Shown piece after piece: positions 1,910 through 11,500 of a DNA stretch of 11,509 nucleotides. The stretch is from the IMG/VR virus record IMGVR_UViG_648276665_000003, positions 1-11,509 of that record; one strand, written 5' to 3'. The translations under genes and the position numbers were made by a program. How positions within the stretch are numbered: the stretch's first letter is position 1; the number at the start of each line of letters is the position of its first letter. This stretch comes from a virus. Its lineage: Duplodnaviria; Heunggongvirae; Uroviricota; Caudoviricetes. The notes under the pieces were generated by a model, which was not told where the DNA came from, ran no database searches, and saw nothing but the letters and a program-made list of their open reading frames with translations.

Positions 1910-1911
1910 TT

Positions 1912-2082
1912 ATGAGTGAACCGCGTTGTATTGCTCAGTTACTGCGTAACGAAAGCCCCAGGGCGATTGACTTCACCATCACCCACGGTAAGGGGCGTAA
2001 GGGAATCATTATCCGCACCAAAAAACAGAGTCCGTTAAAAAAGGCTCTGACCTTTCTGAAAAGCCGGAGGGTCTGGAAATGA
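1912..2082 (+). CDS. Small early-operon protein of unknown function (position of P2 orf78)
   Basis: ATG at 1912 is 3 nt after the cox stop, and its stop overlaps the start of the next gene (ATGA at 2079-2082). The ORF track extends it to 1885, overlapping cox. Confidence 0.5.
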   Translation: MSEPRCIAQLLRNESPRAIDFTITHGKGRKGIIIRTKKQSPLKKALTFLKSRRVWK

Positions 2083-2579
2083 CAGTGATGACGCTCAATC
2101 TCGTCGAAAAACAGCCAGCAGCTATGCGCCGGATAATTGGTAAGCATCTTGCCGTCCCTCGCTGGCAGGATACATGTGATTATTATAATCAGATGATGGA
2201 GCGCGAACGGCTAACAGTTTGCTTTCATGCGCAGTTAAAACAACGTCACGCAACGATGCGTTTTGAAGAAATGAACGACGTCGAACGTGAACGGCTGGTT
2301 TGTGCAATTGATGAATTGCGTGGGGCATTCTCAAAACGCCGTCAGGTTGGCGCAAGTGAGTATGCATATATTAGTTTTTTAACAGTCAGTCAGCGTCGTA
2401 CTTTATTTATGCATGCCGGATTGACTGAAAAAGAATTCAATCAGCCATACTGGCGAATTAATGAAGAGTCATGTTACTGGCGTGATGCTTTATTCCGTGC
2501 ATTACGTGAACTATTCAGTCTGTTTGAGTATGCACCGACAATTCTGACGTCGGTAAAACCAGAGCAATATTTGCATTAA
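2079..2579 (+). CDS. B: Replication protein B-like
   Basis: 166 aa, the same length as P2 gpB as I recall, at the expected position between cox/orf78 and A. Translationally coupled to the upstream ORF. Confidence 0.6.
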   Translation: MTVMTLNLVEKQPAAMRRIIGKHLAVPRWQDTCDYYNQMMERERLTVCFHAQLKQRHATMRFEEMNDVERERLVCAIDELRGAFSKRRQVGASEYAYISFLTVSQRRTLFMHAGLTEKEFNQPYWRINEESCYWRDALFRALRELFSLFEYAPTILTSVKPEQYLH

Positions 2580-2600
2580 ATAATTAACCAGAGTTTTTAA

Positions 2601-2629
2601 CGCACTTAATCGTGCGGGGCTTCTTTTTG
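2601..2629 (+). terminator. Weak hairpin plus T-tract after B (possible attenuator)
   Basis: Stem CGCAC / GTGCG (2601-2605 and 2612-2616) with a 6-nt loop, followed by 'CTTCTTTTT'. The stem is short, so this is weak. Confidence 0.2.
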
Positions 2630-2642
2630 CCTGGAGAAAGTC

Positions 2643-2867
2643 ATGCATACAGTTTCTGAAAATCAGTGCGGTAAATACGCATTACTGCTGCAACAGGCCA
2701 GAACCGAAGCACAGGCCGACGCTGCGACGCGCTTTTCTTCTCATCTTGACGCCATGATTCGCCATATCACAAAGGCGGAGTTATCCCGCGTGGAGATAGT
2801 CGAGCTGCTCAGTCAGGAGTCGGAAAAATTTCACAATATCGGATTGTCTCGCGGGGAGGTGCTTTGA
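2643..2867 (+). CDS. Small early protein of unknown function (position of P2 orf80)
   Basis: 74 aa; ATG preceded by GGAGAAAG. Its stop overlaps the next start. Confidence 0.55.
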
Positions 2868-3166
2868 TGTCCTGTTCTCATTCAGTTGTATTACTGAATA
2901 ACGCCTTAAAAATCGCCGTTATGGAAAATGGTGATTTGTCTCTTATTCAACTTTGTCTTAATAAAGAAAAACGCGACATAACTGAATCTGTTATCGCGAT
3001 TTATCAGAATGAATTAAACCTCCTGTCTGATGTGGTCAATTTACTTGTTAAACGCGCTGTGTTCCACAAGCAAATTTCCTCAGTGGATGAACTGACAAAA
3101 TTAACGACAGAACTCGCCAGTTATTGCGCTGATGTATCCAGGAAACTTAACGATAAAAGGAGCTGA
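2867..3166 (+). CDS. Small early protein of unknown function (position of P2 orf81)
   Basis: ATG at 2867 overlaps the upstream stop (TGATG) and has GGAGG 7 nt upstream. The ORF-track start at 2864 is a TTG. Confidence 0.55.
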   Translation: MSCSHSVVLLNNALKIAVMENGDLSLIQLCLNKEKRDITESVIAIYQNELNLLSDVVNLLVKRAVFHKQISSVDELTKLTTELASYCADVSRKLNDKRS

Positions 3167-3168
3167 TA

Positions 3169-3393
3169 ATGCCGGACAACGTAGATTTTATTCAGGAACA
3201 ACAGGCTGAATTACTGGAGCGCCAGATTAACGCGGCAAGGGTAAAACATTGCGGTGTTTCTTCGCTGGTTTGCGAAGAGTGTGATGCGCCAATACCTGCT
3301 GCCCGTCGTGCGGCTTATCCGTCAGCCACGCGTTGTGTTTCCTGTCAGTCAGTCTTTGAAGCAAAAAACAAACATTACCGGAGAACGGCATGA
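3169..3393 (+). CDS. TraR/DksA-type C4 zinc-finger protein (position of P2 orf82)
   Basis: 74 aa with 'CEECDAPIP...' and 'CVSCQ' (CxxC...CxxC). Strong Shine-Dalgarno AAAGGAG. Confidence 0.65.
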   Translation: MPDNVDFIQEQQAELLERQINAARVKHCGVSSLVCEECDAPIPAARRAAYPSATRCVSCQSVFEAKNKHYRRTA

Positions 3394-3665
3394 GTATTCG
3401 TATTGAAATTGGCGAACGTTATGTCGTTACCAGTGACAGCTTTCAGTTTATTCTCCACGAGAAAAAGAGAGCGGAAAGCGGTAAAAACGCCGGTCAGGAA
3501 TGGCTGTCGGTGGTTGGTTATTACCCGAAATTAAGCCAGCTCGTTTCCGGCCTGATGCATCACGATATTCTGACCGGAAGCGCAAAATCTTTTGCCGATT
3601 TAAACGCGCAGGTTGAGCAACTCAGCAAGCGTTGTTCAGAGGCTTTTGGCTCATATGGACGTTAA
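3390..3665 (+). CDS. Small early protein of unknown function (position of P2 orf83)
   Basis: 91 aa; its ATG overlaps the upstream stop (ATGA), and its 3' end overlaps the start of gene A. Confidence 0.55.
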   Translation: MSIRIEIGERYVVTSDSFQFILHEKKRAESGKNAGQEWLSVVGYYPKLSQLVSGLMHHDILTGSAKSFADLNAQVEQLSKRCSEAFGSYGR

Positions 3666-5952
3666 AGCCTCCGGGCGTTTTGTCCCTCCGTCAGCATTTG
3701 CCGCAGGTACCGGTAAGACGTTTACCGGTGCTTATGCATGGAACGCGCCACGCGAGGCTGTCGGGCGCGAAAGACCCCTTACACGTGACGAGATGCGTCA
3801 GGTGCAAGGTGTTTTATCCACGATTAACCGTCTGCCTTACTTTTTGCGCTCGCTGTTTACTTCACGTTATGACTACATCCGGCGCAATAAAAGCCCGGTG
3901 CACGGGTTTTATTTCCTCACATCCACTTTTCAGCGTCGCTTATGGCCGCGCATTGAGCGCGTGAATCAGCGCCATGAAATGAACACCGACGCGTCGTTGC
4001 TGTTTCTGGCAGAGCGTGACCATTATGCGCGCCTGCCTGGAATGAATGACAAGGAGCTGAAAAAGTTTGCCGCCCGTATCTCATCGCAGCTTTTCATGAT
4101 GTATGAGGAACTCTGCGATGCATGGGTGGATGCGCATGGCGAAAAAGAATCGCTGTTTACGGATGAGGCGCAGGCTCACCTCTATGGTCATGTTGCTGGC
4201 GCTGCACGTGCTTTCAATATTTCCCCTCTCTACTGGAAAAAATACCGTAAAGGACAGATGACCACGAGGCAGGCATATTCTGCCATTGCCCGTCTGTTTA
4301 ACGATGAGTGGTGGACTCATCAGCTTAAAGGCCAGCGTATGCGCTGGCATGAGGCGTTACTGATTGCTGTCGGGGAGGTCAATAAAGACCGTTCTCCTTA
4401 TGCCAGTAAACATGCCATTCGTGATGTGCGTGCACGCCGCCAGGCAAATCTGGAATTTCTTAAATCGTGTGATCTCGAAAACAGGGAAACAGGCGAGCGC
4501 ATCGACCTTATCAGTAAGGTGATGGGCAGTATTTCTAATCCTGAAATTCGCCGGATGGAGCTGATGAACACCATTGCCGGTATTGAGCGTTACGCCGCCG
4601 CAGAGGGTGATGTGGGGATGTTTATCACGCTGACCGCGCCGTCAAAGTATCACCCGACACGTCAGGTTGGAAAAGGCGAAAGTAAAACCGTCCAGCTAAA
4701 TCACGGCTGGAACGATGAGGCATTTAATCCAAAGGATGCGCAGCGTTATCTCTGCCGTATCTGGAGCCTGATGCGCACGGCATTCAAGGATAATGATTTA
4801 CAGGTCTACGGTTTGCGAGTCGTCGAGCCACACCACGACGGAACGCCGCACTGGCATATGATGTTTTTTTGTAATCCACGCCAGCGTAACCAGATTATCG
4901 AAATCATGCGTCGCTATGCGCTCAAAGAGGATGGCGACGAAAGAGGAGCCGCGCGAAACCGTTTTCAGGCAAAACATCTTAATCGGGGCGGTGCTGCGGG
5001 GTATATCGCGAAATACATCTCAAAAAATATCGACGGCTATGCACTGGATGGGCAGCTCGATAACGATACCGGCAGACCGCTGAAAGATACTGCCGCGGCT
5101 GTTACCGCATGGGCGTCAACGTGGCGCATTCCGCAATTTAAAACGGTTGGCCTGCCGACAATGGGGGCTTACCGTGAACTACGCAAATTGCCTCGCGGCG
5201 TCAGCATTGCTGATGAGTTTGACGAGCGCGTCGAGGCTGCACGCGCCGCCGCAGACAGTGGTGATTTTGCGCTGTATATCAGCGCGCAGGGTGGGGCAAA
5301 TGTCCCGCGCGATTGTCAGACTGTCAGGGTCGCCCGTAGTCCGTCGGATGAAGTTAACGAGTACGAGGAAGAAGTCGAGAGAGTGGTCGGCATTTACGCG
5401 CCGCATCTCGGCGCGCGTCATATTCATATCACCAGAACGACGGACTGGCGCATTGTTCCGAAAGTGCCGGTCGTTGAGCCTTTGACTTTAAAAAGCGGCA
5501 TCGCCGCGCCTCGGAGTCCTGTCAATAACTGTGGAAAGCTCACCAGCGGTGATACTTCGTTACCGGCTCCCACGCCTTCTGAGCACGCCGCAGCAGTGCT
5601 TAATCTGGTTGATGACGGTGTTATCGAATGGAATGACCCGGAGGTCGTGAGGGCGCTCAGGGGCGCATTAAAACACGGGCTGAGAACACCAAATCGTCAG
5701 CAGAGAAACGGAAGCCCGTTAAAACAGTATGAAATGGCACCATCGGCCAGACTGACCCGGTCGGAACGAATGCAAATTACCCGTATCCGCGTTGACCTCG
5801 CTCAGAACGGTATCAGGCCGCAGCGATGGGAGCTTGAGGCGCTGGCGCGTGGGGCGACCGTAAATTATGACGGGAAACATTTTACTTATCAGGTCGCTGA
5901 TGAGTGGCCGGGATTCTCAACAGTATTAGAGTCAAACTCAGTGAAGCGTTAA
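3655..5952 (+). CDS. A: Rolling-circle replication initiator (HUH endonuclease), P2 gpA family
   Basis: HUH motif 'TPHWHMMFF' and tandem-tyrosine motif 'YIAKYISK'. I take the ATG at 3655 ('MDVKASGRF...'), giving 765 aa against about 761 for P2 gpA; the ORF-track start at 3613 is a TTG. Confidence 0.9.
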   Translation: MDVKASGRFVPPSAFAAGTGKTFTGAYAWNAPREAVGRERPLTRDEMRQVQGVLSTINRLPYFLRSLFTSRYDYIRRNKSPVHGFYFLTSTFQRRLWPRIERVNQRHEMNTDASLLFLAERDHYARLPGMNDKELKKFAARISSQLFMMYEELCDAWVDAHGEKESLFTDEAQAHLYGHVAGAARAFNISPLYWKKYRKGQMTTRQAYSAIARLFNDEWWTHQLKGQRMRWHEALLIAVGEVNKDRSPYASKHAIRDVRARRQANLEFLKSCDLENRETGERIDLISKVMGSISNPEIRRMELMNTIAGIERYAAAEGDVGMFITLTAPSKYHPTRQVGKGESKTVQLNHGWNDEAFNPKDAQRYLCRIWSLMRTAFKDNDLQVYGLRVVEPHHDGTPHWHMMFFCNPRQRNQIIEIMRRYALKEDGDERGAARNRFQAKHLNRGGAAGYIAKYISKNIDGYALDGQLDNDTGRPLKDTAAAVTAWASTWRIPQFKTVGLPTMGAYRELRKLPRGVSIADEFDERVEAARAAADSGDFALYISAQGGANVPRDCQTVRVARSPSDEVNEYEEEVERVVGIYAPHLGARHIHITRTTDWRIVPKVPVVEPLTLKSGIAAPRSPVNNCGKLTSGDTSLPAPTPSEHAAAVLNLVDDGVIEWNDPEVVRALRGALKHGLRTPNRQQRNGSPLKQYEMAPSARLTRSERMQITRIRVDLAQNGIRPQRWELEALARGATVNYDGKHFTYQVADEWPGFSTVLESNSVKR

Positions 5953-6035
5953 CTCAATCAATAGGAGTTTATAAGTTAGGCCTCGAGATTTTGTAGAAAG
6001 GGATGTATACTGAGCATCGTATAGATTTGGAGTGA

Positions 6036-7061
6036 ATGATGACTGTAAAGGTGATAGACCTTTTTTGTGGTGCTGGCGGATTAACTCATGGTTTACAGCT
6101 TGCGGGGCTTGATGTCGTTGCAGGCATAGACCTTGAGGGGGAATGTCGGTTTCCCTATGAAAGAAACAATAAATCTAAGTTTATTGAGCAAGATATCGCT
6201 AAAGTAACAAAAGAGGAACTGCTGAGGCTTTATGGTGATGCGTCTGTAAAAGTATTGGCAGGATGCGCACCTTGCCAACCTTTTTCAAAATATACTCAAG
6301 GAAAAGATAAGGCTGATGATAAAAAATGGCCTCTTCTTTATGAGTTCGAACGTTTAATTCGCGAAGTATCTCCAGAAATCGTAACAATGGAGAACGTTCC
6401 TGATGTAACTAAACATAAAGTTTATAATGATTTTTATAATTCATTGTTAAAGTTGGGCTATTATGTTTGGGCGTCGAAGGTTGATTGTGTCGAATATGGA
6501 ATCCCACAAAACCGTTCCCGTCATGTATTGTTGGCTTCAAAATTGGGGGCGATTGAGTTAGTAAAACGTGACGATGTTATTTTGAAAACAGTTAGAGATG
6601 CAATAGGAAATCTTCCTCCGTTAGAAGATGGCCAAACAGATCCAAATGATATATTACATAGAGCCAGTAAATTAAATCCGATTAATAAAAAAAGAATTAT
6701 ACACTCTGTTCCTGGTGGTACATGGAAGGACTGGCCGAAGGAGCTGATTGCTGCTTGTCATATGAAATCTAGCGGTAAAGGATATGCTAGTGTATATGGG
6801 CGCATGTCTTGGGATAAGCCAAGTCCAACAATTACAACTCTTTGTTATGGTTTCGGAAATGGACGTTTTGGACATCCAGAACAGCATAGAGCGATTTCTC
6901 TTAGAGAGGCTGCTTTATTGCAAACTTTTCCGATGGATTATATCTTTGTAGAAGACAAAGACAAGTTTGTTATAAGAAGTATTGGGAAAATGATAGGTAA
7001 TGCTGTTCCTGTGGAACTAGGAAAAGCAATTGGGCAATCAATCAAGAACCATTTAGAATGA
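6036..7061 (+). CDS. DNA (cytosine-5)-methyltransferase
   Basis: Canonical C5-MTase motifs in order: I 'DLFCGAGG', IV 'GCAPCQPFS' (catalytic PC), VI 'TMENVPD', VIII 'QNRSRHVL', X-like 'GNAVPV'. Shine-Dalgarno GGAG 6 nt upstream. The gene is AT-rich (about 35% GC in sampled stretches) against roughly 50% in the flanking phage genes. Confidence 0.9.
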   Translation: MMTVKVIDLFCGAGGLTHGLQLAGLDVVAGIDLEGECRFPYERNNKSKFIEQDIAKVTKEELLRLYGDASVKVLAGCAPCQPFSKYTQGKDKADDKKWPLLYEFERLIREVSPEIVTMENVPDVTKHKVYNDFYNSLLKLGYYVWASKVDCVEYGIPQNRSRHVLLASKLGAIELVKRDDVILKTVRDAIGNLPPLEDGQTDPNDILHRASKLNPINKKRIIHSVPGGTWKDWPKELIAACHMKSSGKGYASVYGRMSWDKPSPTITTLCYGFGNGRFGHPEQHRAISLREAALLQTFPMDYIFVEDKDKFVIRSIGKMIGNAVPVELGKAIGQSIKNHLE

Positions 7062-7067
7062 TAAAAT

Positions 7068-7084
7068 GGCCTGCTTTGCAGGCC
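7068..7084. terminator. Bidirectional rho-independent terminator between the convergent MTase gene and DUF262 operon
   Basis: Perfect 7-bp stem GGCCTGC / GCAGGCC with a TTT loop, flanked by A/T-rich runs on both sides, between the stops at 7061 (+) and 7091 (-). Confidence 0.6.
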
Positions 7085-7090
7085 TTATTA

Positions 7091-7771
7091 CTATTGTTCT
7101 AAATATTCATTATTATTTATATAGTGCTCTATATTATTCGCGATTGCATCAAGATAGGCGATTACTTCTAATGAAATATTCTCTAAGTCCTGATATGAAA
7201 CATTTTTTCCAATCTCAGCAAATGATACATTGCCATGAGATAAATCATTACGATGTTGTTTGACAGTGGCTAATTTTTCACCATGTTTAGTGTGAGTGTA
7301 ATCAGAATATGTTGAAAAACCATATATTTTCGATTTTTCTTTGATTTCCTCTCTATCAATATTTCCTGAGAATATTTTCTTTTTGTTGAAAGTGCCATAA
7401 GATATACCGCAAGATATACCTTTAGTAAGACGGTTAACTAAACTTTCAATATTTACAGATTCATTTTTTAATCTTTTTAATATTTCTGACCTGATATTTT
7501 TCCTGAGTTTGTCAAATTCTACGTTTCTATCATAAATAGTCTCATGAATAAGGCAGATAGCTTCTCTCATTGTTGATTCAATGAGGTTATATAATAGAAT
7601 ATATACTGCCCCCTTTAGAGTTTTTCGTGATTGAGCAGTAATGGAGAACTTATGTTCTTTATCATCAGATGATATCAGTTCTGCACCGGCATACTCAATA
7701 AATTTCAAAAGATCTAAATAGGCCAAGATCTCTCCTGACCTTTCGTCAAAATCCTCACGAAAACGATCCAT
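7091..7771 (-). CDS. Hypothetical protein with C-terminal Rx4H motif (HEPN-like, putative RNase effector); second gene of the DUF262 operon
   Basis: 226 aa with 'QHRNDLSHG' (R-x4-H) about 45 residues from the C-terminus, where HEPN catalytic motifs sit. The start codon is 1 nt after the DUF262 stop, with Shine-Dalgarno GAGGAT. Very AT-rich. The HEPN assignment is from the motif only. Confidence 0.6.
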   Translation of the reverse strand: MDRFREDFDERSGEILAYLDLLKFIEYAGAELISSDDKEHKFSITAQSRKTLKGAVYILLYNLIESTMREAICLIHETIYDRNVEFDKLRKNIRSEILKRLKNESVNIESLVNRLTKGISCGISYGTFNKKKIFSGNIDREEIKEKSKIYGFSTYSDYTHTKHGEKLATVKQHRNDLSHGNVSFAEIGKNVSYQDLENISLEVIAYLDAIANNIEHYINNNEYLEQ

Positions 7772-7772
7772 G

Positions 7773-8915
7773 TTAATCCTCTAATAATTTATCCCGAACA
7801 TATTCAATTCGTTCAATTACCTTCACGCGACTATTAGCTCCGTCTGAAGTGGTCAATCGTTTGAATTCTTCTGAGCTTAGCCAATCCAAGTTCTTGGGAA
7901 CAAGGTCAGGGATTTCACGTAATGCAAGTGCTGCGCCAACAGCGAGAGATTCGAATCTAACTCGAGGTGTAGATTTTGCAGTAATAGTTTTCTTGAATCC
8001 TGCTGGGAAATAGTTATCAACAAAAGATAGAACATTAGCAAACTCTTGTTTCATTGAGTTTTGTTTAGTTTCGTCTATATCTCGATTTTCTAACATATAG
8101 TCATTTAGAAAATCCCGTACGGAATGATCAAAGTTCTTGTACTTATCTAAGTAGGCAAAAAATCTTAATGTAAATTCTAACCGTTCATCTCGTTTTTCTT
8201 TAGTCTGAGATAAAGGTGCTAATTCTTTAAATTTAGGTATTGTTGAGCATGGCTTAATAACCTGTGTATATAAATTTGTTGAACCAAGTTCTGATCCTTT
8301 ACGGACTTCCATATCTTTCAATATATCGCTGCCAGAGTTAATACGTTCAAAAAGATCTCTACGGGTTTCTTCATTGCATTTAGAACTCAATTCTATAACG
8401 CGGACAGGAATTCTCATGAAACGACGTTGACGTGATAATGGTAAATCTTGGAATTTGAAACCATTAAGGGCGTCTAAAGATTTCAGATCTTGTAAAACTA
8501 ATTCATTTTGGATAAAAGCGTGTATAGTCCTAACTCGCTGTGAGCCATCAACAATCTCAATTCGCCCATCTAAATCGGGATCTTCGGAGAGAACATCTGC
8601 TGTAAATATATATGGTATAGGAAAACCCAAAATCAAAGACTCTATCAATCTTGATTGTCTTTTTTCACTCCAAACAAAATCCCTTTGATAATCAGGAACA
8701 AAGAGTTCGTTAGTATCATCCTCTAATCCGCTATGATACTTATTAACTAATAACTCAACGGTAAATTCTTTGGTCTCAAAATCCACATCCTTTTGCTCAG
8801 CACGAATTTGCTCTTCAGCGTTTTGCTTTATCACCTCTAGCTGAGCAAGCAACTCTGCTCTTTTCTTGGCATTATCTTCATTTTCTAGTTGAGATTTTAA
8901 ATCAATAATGTCCAT
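7773..8915 (-). CDS. DUF262 (ParB/GmrS-like NTP-binding) domain protein; first gene of a two-gene operon
   Basis: DUF262 signature blocks 'VPDYQRDFVW', 'LIESLILGFPIP' and 'DGSQRVRTI' (DGQQR-type). The likely start is the ATG at 8915 with AGGGAG 6 nt upstream; the ORF track extends to a TTG at 8933. There is no recognisable fused His-Me/HNH (DUF1524) domain. Confidence 0.8.
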   Translation of the reverse strand: MDIIDLKSQLENEDNAKKRAELLAQLEVIKQNAEEQIRAEQKDVDFETKEFTVELLVNKYHSGLEDDTNELFVPDYQRDFVWSEKRQSRLIESLILGFPIPYIFTADVLSEDPDLDGRIEIVDGSQRVRTIHAFIQNELVLQDLKSLDALNGFKFQDLPLSRQRRFMRIPVRVIELSSKCNEETRRDLFERINSGSDILKDMEVRKGSELGSTNLYTQVIKPCSTIPKFKELAPLSQTKEKRDERLEFTLRFFAYLDKYKNFDHSVRDFLNDYMLENRDIDETKQNSMKQEFANVLSFVDNYFPAGFKKTITAKSTPRVRFESLAVGAALALREIPDLVPKNLDWLSSEEFKRLTTSDGANSRVKVIERIEYVRDKLLED

Positions 8916-9100
8916 GTCTAGCTCCCTTAACAAGTGTTAAAAATTGAAGCGGATAGCATACCGCATAGATCATGAAAAATGCCATCATGTGCATGGATTT
9001 GCATGCGTCAGAAGTCGCTTTTATTGTTAGTTATCACTAGCGATGGTGTGCTCTTGGAGTGTTCATGCAACTGCATTAAAAATGCCCCATGAAGCGGGCG

Positions 9101-9119
9101 GGCGAGGCGGGGAAAGCAC
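9101..9119. other. cos site: 19-nt cohesive-end sequence of P2/186/P4-type phages
   Basis: Exact match to 'GGCGAGGCGGGGAAAGCAC', which I recall as the P2/P4 cohesive end. It lies between the end of the early region and gene Q, as in P2. Confidence 0.75.
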
Positions 9120-9261
9120 TGCGCGCTGGCGGTGGTGCTGATTTTATTTTTTCAGCGTCTGAGCGCGTCTTGATGGCGTTTAGATTGTGCGCCGGGGCGT
9201 TGGTGTGTCTGCGGGGTGTTTTGTGCGGTGGTGAGCGTGTGAGGGCGTGATGACGGGGTGT

Positions 9262-9288: not shown

Positions 9289-10323
9289 TCAGCCGTTGTC
9301 AGTGTCCAGTGAGTAGTTTTTAAAGCGGATGACCTCCTGGCCGAGCCAGCCGTTTATTTCCCGAATCCTGTCCTGTAACGGGATAAGCTCATTGCGGACA
9401 AAGACCTTTGCCACTTTCTCAATATCACCCAGCGACCCGACGTTCTCCGGCTTGCCCCCCATCAACTGAAAGGGGATGCGGTGCGCGTCCAGCAGGTCAG
9501 CGGCGCTGGCTTTTTTGATATTAAAAAAATCGTCCTTCGTTGCCACTTCACTGAGCGGGATAATTTTAATGCCGTCGGCTTTCCCCTGCGGGGCATAGAG
9601 AAACAGATTTTTAAAGTTATTGCGGCCTTTTGACTTAACCATGTTTTCGCGAAGCATTTCGATATCGTTGCGGTCCTGCACGGCATCGGTGACGTACATG
9701 ATGTATCCGGCATGTGCGCCGTTTTCGTAATACTTGCGGCGGAACAGCGTGGCCGACTCATTCAGCCAGGCAGAGTTAAGGGCGCTGAGATATTCCGGCA
9801 GGCCGTACAGCTCCTGATTAATATCAGGCTCCAGCAGGTGAAACACGGAGCCGGGCGCGAAGGCTGTCGGCTCGTTGAAGGACGGCACCCACCAGTAAAC
9901 ATCCTCCTCCACGCCACGACGGGTATATTTGGCCGGTGAGGTTTCCAGTCTGATGACCTTACCGGTGGTGCTGTAACGCTTTTCCAGAAACGCATTACCG
10001 AACACCAGAAAATCCAGCACAAAGCGGCTGAAATCCTGCTGGGAAAGCCACGGATGCGGGATAAATGTCGAGGCCAGAATATTGCGTTTGACGTAAATCG
10101 GGGAGCTGTGATGCACGGCAGCACGCAGGCTTTTTGCCAGACCGGTAAAGCTGACCGGTGGCTCATACCATCTGCCGTTACTGATGCACTCAACGTAATC
10201 CAGAATGTCACGGCGGTCGAGTACCGGCACCGGCTCACCAAAGGTGAATGCCTCCATTTTCGGGGCGCTGGCGGTCATTTTTTTTGCCGCAGGTTGCGGT
10301 GTTTTCCCTTTTTTCTTGCTCAT
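9289..10323 (-). CDS. Q: Portal protein, P2 gpQ-like
   Basis: 344 aa, the same as P2 gpQ as I recall. It is the first gene after cos on the complementary strand, and its ATG overlaps the stop of the upstream terminase fragment (TGATG). Confidence 0.8.
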   Translation of the reverse strand: MSKKKGKTPQPAAKKMTASAPKMEAFTFGEPVPVLDRRDILDYVECISNGRWYEPPVSFTGLAKSLRAAVHHSSPIYVKRNILASTFIPHPWLSQQDFSRFVLDFLVFGNAFLEKRYSTTGKVIRLETSPAKYTRRGVEEDVYWWVPSFNEPTAFAPGSVFHLLEPDINQELYGLPEYLSALNSAWLNESATLFRRKYYENGAHAGYIMYVTDAVQDRNDIEMLRENMVKSKGRNNFKNLFLYAPQGKADGIKIIPLSEVATKDDFFNIKKASAADLLDAHRIPFQLMGGKPENVGSLGDIEKVAKVFVRNELIPLQDRIREINGWLGQEVIRFKNYSLDTDNG

Positions 10324-10592
10324 CAGTAAAACTCCAGAATGGTGGATGTCAGCGGGGTGCTGATACCGGCGGTGAGTGGCTCATTTAACAGGGCGTGCAT
10401 GGTCGCCCAGGCGAGGTCGGCGTGGCTGGCTTCCTCGCTGCGGCTGGCCTCATAGGTGGCGCTGCGTCCGCTGCTGGTCATGGTCTTGCGGATAGCCATA
10501 AACGAGCTGGTGATGTCGGTGGCGCTGACGTCATATTCCAGACAGCCACGGCGGATGACGTCTTTTGCCTTGAGCACCATTGCGGTTTTCAT
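10323..10592 (-). pseudogene. P: C-terminal fragment of the terminase ATPase subunit (P2 gpP-like); the 5' portion is missing
   Basis: The reading frame directly upstream of Q with stop/start overlap extends only about 90 codons before running into antisense FI sequence and a stop at 10716-10718; gpP should be about 590 aa. Identity rests on position. Confidence 0.55.
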
Positions 10593-10621
10593 TTCCGGCG
10601 TGTAACCGTACCTGCTCCGAT

Positions 10622-10969
10622 GACCCGCTGTTCCTCTTTGAAAACTACACCCGCACCGCGCAGGTGCTGGCCGACACGATGGCTGAGGCGCACATGTGGG
10701 CGGTGGACAAGCCCATCACCGCAACGCTGATTCGCGACATCGTTGACGGCATCAATGCCAAATTCCGTGAGCTGAAAACAAACGGCTATATCGTGGATGC
10801 GACCTGCTGGTTCAGCGAAGAATCCAACGATGCGGAAACCCTCAAGGCCGGAAAACTGTATATCGACTACGACTATACCCCGGTGCCTCCTCTTGAAAAC
10901 CTGACCCTGCGCCAGCGTATTACCGATAAATACCTGGCAAATCTGGTCACCTCGGTTAACAGCAATTAA
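10622..10969 (+). pseudogene. FI: C-terminal fragment of the tail sheath protein (P2 gpFI-like); the 5' portion is missing
   Basis: Open frame ending '[11 protein letters not shown]' immediately upstream of FII, with no plausible start or Shine-Dalgarno; about 115 codons against about 396 for intact gpFI. The fragment start is approximate. Confidence 0.55.
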
Positions 10970-10981
10970 GGAGCCTGACCG

Positions 10982-11500
10982 ATGGCAATGCCGCGCAAAC
11001 TCAAGTTAATGAACGTCTTTCTGAACGGCTACAGCTATCAGGGCGTCGCGAAGTCCGTCACGCTGCCAAAACTGACCCGTAAGCTCGAAAACTATCGCGG
11101 TGCGGGGATGAACGGCAGCGCACCGGTAGACCTCGGCCTTGATGACGATGCGCTGTCAATGGAGTGGTCGCTCGGGGGCTTCCCGGATTCGGTTATCTGG
11201 GAGCTTTACGCCGCAACCGGTGTGGATGCTGTGCCGATTCGTTTTGCAGGCTCTTACCAGCGTGACGATACCGGCGAAACGGTGGCCGTCGAAGTGGTCA
11301 TGCGTGGACGTCAGAAAGAAATCGACACCGGCGAGGGTAAACAGGGAGAAGACACTGAGTCGAAAATCTCCGTGGTCTGCACCTATTTCCGGCTGACGAT
11401 GGACGGTAAGGAGCTGGTCGAAATCGACACCATCAACATGATTGAGAAGGTGAACGGCGTCGACCGGCTGGAGCAACACCGCCGCAATATCGGCCTGTGA
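10982..11500 (+). CDS. FII: Tail tube protein, P2 gpFII-like
   Basis: 172 aa, the same as P2 gpFII as I recall, with strong Shine-Dalgarno TAAGGAG. It follows the FI fragment in the FI-FII order. Confidence 0.75.
   Translation: MAMPRKLKLMNVFLNGYSYQGVAKSVTLPKLTRKLENYRGAGMNGSAPVDLGLDDDALSMEWSLGGFPDSVIWELYAATGVDAVPIRFAGSYQRDDTGETVAVEVVMRGRQKEIDTGEGKQGEDTESKISVVCTYFRLTMDGKELVEIDTINMIEKVNGVDRLEQHRRNIGL

Follow-up and report, generated by a model that had tools for sequence, protein, structure and literature searches.

The window analysed here, 11,509 nucleotides (nt) of the virus record IMGVR_UViG_648276665_000003, is the early region of a P2-like Escherichia coli prophage. Between the replication gene A and the cohesive-end sequence cos it holds an island of three genes, one for a C5 DNA cytosine methyltransferase (the methylase) and, convergent with it, an operon encoding a DUF262/ParB-like nucleoside triphosphatase (NTPase) and a HEPN protein of the MAE_28990 family (Table 1). 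A preliminary description of this DNA had proposed such a cargo in the P2 hotspot between A and cos, with a C5 methyltransferase convergent with an operon of DUF262 and Rx4H-motif genes, and this arrangement is borne out both by the landmarks on either side and by the three open reading frames (ORFs), which match PF00145, PF03235 and PF18737, respectively. The three genes very probably constitute a single defence-type module in the hotspot.

Table 1. Features of the window, in window coordinates.
Feature	Start	End	Strand	Remarks
Cargo island	5933	9071		no P2 homology (blastn against NC_001895); 36.1% GC
C5 DNA cytosine methyltransferase, 340 aa	6039	7061	+	RefSeq start (WP_001697730); alternative ATG at 6036
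HEPN nuclease, MAE_28990 family, 226 aa	7091	7771	-	catalytic R174x4H179
DUF262/ParB-like NTPase, NsnA-like, 380 aa	7773	8915	-	C-terminal helical DNA-binding-type domain
Bidirectional hairpin terminator	7068	7084		GGCCTGC-TTT-GCAGGCC; scored on both strands
Leader/promoter region of the DUF262-HEPN operon	8916	9071	-	island-specific; promoter inferred
Candidate sigma-70-like promoter upstream of the methylase	5983	6011	+	weak, 9/12 positions
Replication gene A	3613	5952	+	left landmark
P2 cos cohesive-end sequence GGCGAGGCGGGGAAAGCAC	9101	9119	+	right landmark of the hotspot; exact match, 0 expected by chance
Portal gene Q	9289	10323	-	right landmark
Integrase	141	1151	-
C repressor	1191	1484	-
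cox	1637	1909
B	2079	2579

The island and its three genes

In blastn alignments to P2 (NC_001895), window positions 1911-5932 correspond to P2 26290-30311 and positions 9072-9119 to the cosR end of P2, the two flanks being 96.6% and 93.8% identical to P2, respectively. No homology to P2 was found between the aligned flanks, and the island therefore extends over 5933-9071, that is 3,139 bp in place of 3,234 bp of P2 encoding orf91, tin and old. The earlier proposals that tin and old have been replaced, and that the rest of the early region is conserved and syntenic, are thus sustained; the three genes are not conserved core genes of P2. The extent first given for the island, 6036-8915, is right for the coding span, and the island itself is slightly wider. 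At the left border, homology to P2 and to other alleles of the hotspot stops at position 5932, which is 20 nt short of the stop codon of A, and the left recombination boundary is therefore placed within the 3′ end of this gene. The final residues of the A protein vary between phages. The right border of the hotspot lies at 9065-9072, about 30 nt before cos.

The GC content of the island is far below the 48.5% of the left flank and the 55.5% of the right flank, and the profile across the region is not uniform. Third codon positions follow the same pattern, with a GC fraction of 0.24-0.28 in the three cargo genes against 0.55 in A and 0.66 in Q. Windows of 60 nt range from 18 to 58% GC in the island (median 35%) and from 40 to 70% in gene A (median 53%), so that the sampled values originally quoted, 18-37% and 45-60%, were roughly right, as was the reading of low GC as a sign of foreign origin. 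Horizontal acquisition of a 3.1-kb cassette of foreign composition is well supported.

The methylase matches PF00145 (4e-58, 197.7 bits) far over the curated Pfam cut-off and is also above the cut-off of the NCBIfam model TIGR00675. Aligned to M.HaeIII, all catalytic motifs are present: FCGAGG (I), PCQPFS (IV), ENV (VI), QNRSR (VIII) and GNAVP (X). Among 38 orthologues from different phyla, the target-recognition region is as conserved as the catalytic motifs, and this suggests that the enzyme has one fixed target sequence. The specificity could not be inferred from M.HaeIII, M.HhaI or DNMT1, which align in the catalytic parts only, and the database names are generic. A promoter scan of the region yielded no more matches than shuffled sequences. 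In the island, an Rfam scan found no RNA family, with one sub-threshold microRNA match attributable to chance.

The two remaining genes are read leftwards from the cos-proximal side. Their leader matches the old-tin promoter region of P2 in position and orientation, and a Shine-Dalgarno sequence (AAGGGAG, 8922-8928) stands ahead of the DUF262 gene. The TAA stop of DUF262 is separated by 1 nt from the ATG of HEPN (GAGGA-TTAA-C-ATG), a spacing that points to translational coupling of the two genes. The hairpin terminator is placed exactly between the convergent stops of the methylase and HEPN genes.

The HEPN protein matches PF18737 with 3e-29 (103 bits against a cut-off of 26.8), the Pfam family RiboL-PSP-HEPN also matches, and the helical-bundle fold is present. 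The Rx4H motif, R174-N-D-L-S-H179, is invariant in 35 homologues, and from its family the protein is a putative ribonuclease. In the DUF262 protein, residues 69-212 match PF03235 (6e-26), far above the curated Pfam cut-off, and the motifs QRxxxW, DGSQR and FxxxN, as defined in PMC12065111, are invariant in 31 homologues. The AlphaFold model (predicted local distance difference test score 83) shows two domains joined by a disordered linker (193-207), the C-terminal half being all-helical and resembling the DNA-binding middle domains of SspE, GmrSD and NsnA. Foldseek retrieved ParB, Noc, BrxU and SspE with weak E-values (0.012-0.15), at probabilities of 0.85-0.99 for ParB, Noc and BrxU and of 0.33-0.47 for SspE. 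Neither Pfam, where PF03235 is the only match and nothing is found past residue 212, nor Foldseek revealed a nuclease domain in this protein. A weak match (3e-5) to the PADLOC Type II restriction enzyme model 'REase_II' (PDLC03418) falls within the DUF262 region; no known restriction endonuclease family was found in the cargo proteins with Pfam and PADLOC. In PHROGs, both HEPN and DUF262 belong to phage protein families of unknown function.

Distribution of the cassette in Escherichia coli and beyond

The island was found in 9 of 5,426 complete E. coli genomes, eight times at 99.6% identity or more and once at 89.6%, and a copy identical at every position is present in strain CFSAN064036 (RefSeq). 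For six copies the context was examined or annotated, and each of them lies in a P2-like prophage. No phage record in INPHARED holds the island.

The three-gene set, or triad, has a second allele, far more diverged, which occupies the same slot in four further genomes, and three more genomes match this second allele at only about 76% identity over half of its length. Compared with window positions 6039-8915, the second allele (L090 6001-8987 and L092 6001-8895, in a P2/186-like hotspot) has a methylase that is 72% identical, its DUF262 being only 44-45% and its HEPN 29-32% identical. The enterobacterial DUF262-HEPN pairs form two deep lineages, with identities of 44% for DUF262 and 31% for HEPN between them, separated from each other as far as either is from the cyanobacterial copies, and their methylases group together. 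The methylases of Vibrio and Cyanobacteria are only about 54% identical to that of the window, yet the DUF262-HEPN pair of Vibrio is closer to the window's than that of the second allele. This discordance implies either that the methylase, which adjoins the conserved A flank, has been exchanged between alleles, or that evolution is much faster in the sensor-effector pair than in the methylase. A fixed methylation mark combined with diversifying sensor-effector pairs is compatible with either reading.

A HEPN-profile search with one genome per species returned relatives in 213 species, from which 80 loci were analysed, 76 of them with enough downstream sequence. DUF262 stands immediately upstream of HEPN in almost all of the 80. 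HEPN is faced by a convergent orthologous methylase, which abuts or overlaps the 3′ end of the HEPN gene, at 37 of the 76 loci; its identity to the window methylase is 51-57% (E 1e-118 to 1e-132). Gammaproteobacteria, a Betaproteobacterium, a Desulfobacterium and many Cyanobacteria are represented among these loci, most of which are not prophages. The presence of the methylase tracks the DUF262 tree, the three-gene form comprising all proteobacterial copies with the exception of one outlier, together with one cyanobacterial clade. Pairwise distances of the methylase correlate with those of DUF262 (r=0.93) and of HEPN (r=0.80).

When the search was started from the methylase, all five picks at 60-72% identity, from E. 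coli, Klebsiella, Pseudomonas aeruginosa, Shewanella and Stenotrophomonas, proved to lie in the same triad, and each of these triads adjoins an integrase or sits inside a prophage. Closer relatives are located in two prophages, one 186-like in Klebsiella and one P2-like in Gibbsiella, in both cases in the A-Q slot, and in a resolvase-flanked islet of the Vibrio jasicida chromosome. The three genes move together among the hotspots of P2-like and 186-like prophages and islets flanked by integrases or resolvases. We conclude from these sequence comparisons that the triad is most likely one mobile, conserved module with a dedicated methylase and not a random assortment.

The surveyed loci also show departures from the intact form. 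Truncated DUF262 genes were enriched in methylase-less loci (10/38 against 1/37, Fisher p=0.007). A short DUF262 ORF of about 177-187 aa next to a full-length HEPN recurs in the Oscillatoriales Microcoleus and Tychonema (L032, L037, L045, L048, L053, L057, L058, L062 and L076), reflecting either truncation in one ancestor or a split gene. As a sign of methylase dependence the enrichment was discounted, since nearly all of the truncated genes are copies of about 177 aa from these related Oscillatoriales and probably trace to one inherited event. In one genome of Pantoea ananatis, judged from hit tables only, the HEPN is apparently truncated (159 aa) beside a full-length DUF262 and methylase, which could represent decay of the effector alone. 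In Shewanella frigidimarina (L095 1095-7861) the triad stands beside an integrase and a Type II restriction-modification (R-M) unit consisting of an MvaI/BcnI-family endonuclease, a second C5 methylase and a small helix-turn-helix controller-like gene, together a small defence island.

Known relatives and a proposed mechanism

The gene association is not new. Anantharaman et al. 2013 included, as a one-line table entry and as a prediction only, the MAE_28990 HEPN family linked to a 'ParB nuclease' and a DNA methylase; the gene association, the HEPN family and the Rx4-6H motif are exactly those of the window, with no architectural difference. The P2 A-Q interval was established experimentally as an anti-phage hotspot by Rousset et al. 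2022 (PMC9122126; see also PMC9519451), and the available part of their Table S5 lists the exact cargo, with the accessions that RefSeq gives for the CFSAN064036 copy, at least six times. The locus is thus a real but ordinary, already catalogued cargo of a well-known hotspot.

The cassette is well supported as a methylase-linked branch of the DUF262-HEPN family, of which PD-T4-2 is the only validated member. This 1.54-kb pair of DUF262 and HEPN genes from ECOR65 protects against T4, as described by Vassallo et al. 2022 (PMC9519451), and protection was also shown by deletion in the native strain. Like the window, PD-T4-2 is a two-gene operon with DUF262 ahead of HEPN; its model PD-T4-2_A (PDLC04027) matches the DUF262 of the window with 5.3e-35 (residues 79-377 against model positions 55-355 of 363), and the best HHpred families of PD-T4-2B, HEPN_RiboL-PSP and HEPN_MAE_28990, are the two Pfam families that match the window HEPN, a likeness at the level of Pfam families only. 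It differs in its span of 1,540 bp and its shorter HEPN (about 165 aa against 226 aa), in the PD-T4-2_B model, which has no match to the window HEPN at E<=10 in a relaxed PADLOC search, and in that the window DUF262 scores higher with the NsnA model than with PD-T4-2_A. The two-gene core is a remote relative of PD-T4-2.

NsnA (PDLC03877), of the Menshen system NsnABC, matches the DUF262 protein end to end (2.1e-54, residues 17-380 against model positions 25-376 of 385) and shares its two-domain layout of ParB-DUF262 and ParBDB as well as the motifs QRxxxW, DGxQR and FxxxN. Membership of Menshen was rejected since there is neither an NsnB ATPase nor an NsnC inPIN-nuclease, the sole downstream gene being that of the 226-aa HEPN. 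With GmrSD, BrxU and SspE the cargo shares the N-terminal DUF262 domain (PF03235 6e-26; BrxU and SspE by Foldseek) and, as in SspABCD-SspE and GmrSD/BrxU, a DUF262 NTPase sensor domain is coupled to a nuclease effector. These systems fuse DUF262 to a DUF1524 His-Me DNase, in contrast to the separate HEPN effector found here, and membership of GmrSD or Type IV systems was rejected on the absence of a DUF1524 His-Me nuclease domain. Functionally, the nearest parallel is SspABCD-SspE, in which the DUF262 protein has a host DNA modification module as its partner, the modification being phosphorothioate there and 5-methylcytosine (5mC) in the system of the window. To old and tin of P2 the cargo is similar in its slot, in leftward reading from the cos-proximal side and in being of the lysogenic-conversion type, and it has no sequence or domain relationship to them.

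The triad is very probably an anti-phage system. The methylase would put a fixed 5mC mark on the resident chromosome and prophage, and the DUF262 protein, by nucleotide binding or hydrolysis and DNA binding, would sense incoming DNA that is unmarked or otherwise foreign and then activate its HEPN partner. HEPN would most likely cut RNA, so that translation and phage growth stop in an abortive or growth-arrest immunity. In GmrSD, BrxU and SspE the part played by DUF262 is that of a nucleotide-dependent sensor, and a sensor role has likewise been proposed for NsnA (PMC12065111). As a matter of logic, the mark of the system itself cannot be what triggers the sensor, since carriers are methylated by its own enzyme and, if active, by host Dcm. 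With the operon running leftwards from the cos-proximal side as old and tin do, the prophage probably expresses it in the manner of a lysogenic-conversion gene. Taken as a whole, this account of a mobile triad that replaced orf91-tin-old and joins a methyl self-mark, a DUF262 sensor and a HEPN effector seems to us right with slightly better than even chances; methylation as the self-mark, considered as a mechanism of its own, is plausible and falls somewhat short of even.

Several observations weigh against this account. PD-T4-2 was cloned without a methylase and protects as two genes. A sister cyanobacterial clade (L016, L019, L021, L026-L031 and others) has an intact DUF262 and HEPN and no DNA methylase within 8 kb. 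The genes downstream of methylase-less loci are mostly housekeeping (BrkB, ABC transporter, CHAD, GlyS), and no consistent replacement was seen, a single N6/N4 methylase being found among 10 sampled loci. Within the methylase-positive clade, L010 (Aphanizomenon) has lost the methylase, with a glycyl-tRNA synthetase beta gene in its place, and retains an intact pair, which argues against a strict addiction of the R-M kind. The correlated distances could result from co-inheritance alone. No PADLOC model matches the HEPN protein even at E<=10, and the cargo would consequently not be called as any known system; the cargo lies outside the tested set of Rousset et al. (PMC9122126), Table S2 of which has no DUF262 entry, and full-text literature searches found no experimental work on the MAE_28990 HEPN family or the triad.

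The published proposal for R-M-linked HEPN families casts the R-M arm as the first line and HEPN as a PrrC-like backup RNase (Anantharaman et al. 2013). Applied to the triad, DUF262 would be a DNase acting on unmethylated DNA from which the methylase protects self, and HEPN a suicide RNase released once the R-M arm is inhibited or overwhelmed. The listing of this very family beside a 'ParB nuclease' and a methylase, the convergent layout, which is typical of Type II systems, and the weak PDLC03418 match in the DUF262 region are in keeping with this scheme. It is nevertheless unlikely: there is no recognisable nuclease domain, neither DUF1524 nor a His-Me finger, in a protein whose C-terminal half is helical and DNA-binding-like, DUF262 is an NTPase sensor and not a cutter in its characterised relatives, and the 1-nt coupling to HEPN suits a sensor-effector pair better than a first line and its backup. 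Somewhat less probable still is the chance neighbourhood of two unrelated cargoes, a PD-T4-2-like pair in no need of modification and an orphan Dcm-like methylase shielding phage DNA from host restriction. The two-gene activity of PD-T4-2, the intact two-gene clade and the retention of the pair in L010 all speak for independence, as does the fact that the methylase is transcribed separately, convergent to the pair and with a terminator of its own; Dcm-type methylases also occur in other P2 hotspots, such as that of PhiR44_1 with ParaMORC3 and Dcm. Independence is difficult to reconcile with the recurrence of one orthologous methylase, in an unchanged convergent and abutting arrangement, at 37 of 76 loci across phyla, mostly outside prophages, with the five methylase-first look-ups out of five that led to the triad, this methylase clade not being seen alone, and with the way in which methylase presence tracks the DUF262 phylogeny.

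Sensing of modified DNA deserves consideration as well, given that it is with DUF262-containing proteins that GmrSD and BrxU detect modified cytosines, that PD-T4-2 was selected on T4 and that Rousset et al. (PMC9122126) label a Vibrio DUF262 and HEPN_MAE_28990 locus 'Type-IV restriction'. DUF262 would then recognise modified phage cytosines, hydroxymethylcytosine (hmC) or glucosyl-hmC, and trigger HEPN, the methylase being an accessory that, for instance, tunes or masks self sites. Such a scheme leaves the strict linkage to a dedicated C5 methylase unexplained, a sensor that reacts to 5mC would be toxic to its own cell next to this methylase and in Dcm-positive strains of E. coli, and the DUF1524 nuclease that defines GmrSD-type enzymes is absent; we rate it as improbable. 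It is very improbable that the cassette is instead an alarm derived from the methylome, in which a phage degrades methylated host DNA and 5-methyl-dCMP or derived nucleotides bind the DUF262 pocket and turn HEPN on. A 2026 preprint reports a defence module triggered by Dam-derived m6-dAMP during phage-induced chromosome degradation, and the DGxQR nucleotide-binding pocket of DUF262 is conserved; the argument is purely analogical, and the conserved C-terminal DNA-binding-type domain suggests that DNA is read and not a free nucleotide.

The hotspot, the prophage copy and outlook

Other P2-like phages with flanks about 98% identical hold quite different genes in the A-cos slot. In near-identical phages the slot contains ParaMORC3 and Dcm (PhiR44_1), which is another methylase-linked cargo, a VbhT Fic-type AMP-transferase (STYP1), a cytolethal distending toxin (P2 from O157:H43 T22), a DUF4209 protein or a ParB-N-domain protein (vB_EcoM-12474III). 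A 53-aa ORF at 9089-9250 overlaps cos and the GC-rich spacer between cos and Q; it is unannotated in the RefSeq copies and almost certainly not a gene.

The prophage copy in the window is defective. Beyond the portal gene Q, only the last 89 codons of the terminase gene P are left (10323-10592, minus strand), fused directly to the C-terminal part of the tail sheath gene FI (10580-10969), which is followed by FII (10982-11500); the junction lies at about 10583-10616. At this place, late genes fill about 14 kb in full prophages that carry the identical island. The same contiguous P/FI junction was found in none of the complete E. coli genomes, and similar P/FI-joined remnants were found in five genomes.

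The locus is of value in that it offers a methylase-linked DUF262-HEPN system which is compact (3.1 kb), mobile by nature and easy to clone. Since the HEPN component escapes the current PADLOC models, defence censuses probably under-count triads of this kind. The cassette raises the questions of what DUF262 sensors that are not fused to a DNase read, whether DNA methylation can gate an RNase effector, and why a dedicated methylase belongs to certain branches of the family but neither to others nor to PD-T4-2. One may speculate, tentatively and with the chances rather against it, that the triad is an epigenetic self/non-self system with a non-DNase arm, in which a ParB-type NTPase reads the C5 mark and unmarked DNA unleashes the HEPN RNase. 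If this is true, the triad would resemble an R-M system whose output is abortive and directed at RNA, drawing on the sensor family of GmrSD, SspE and Menshen.

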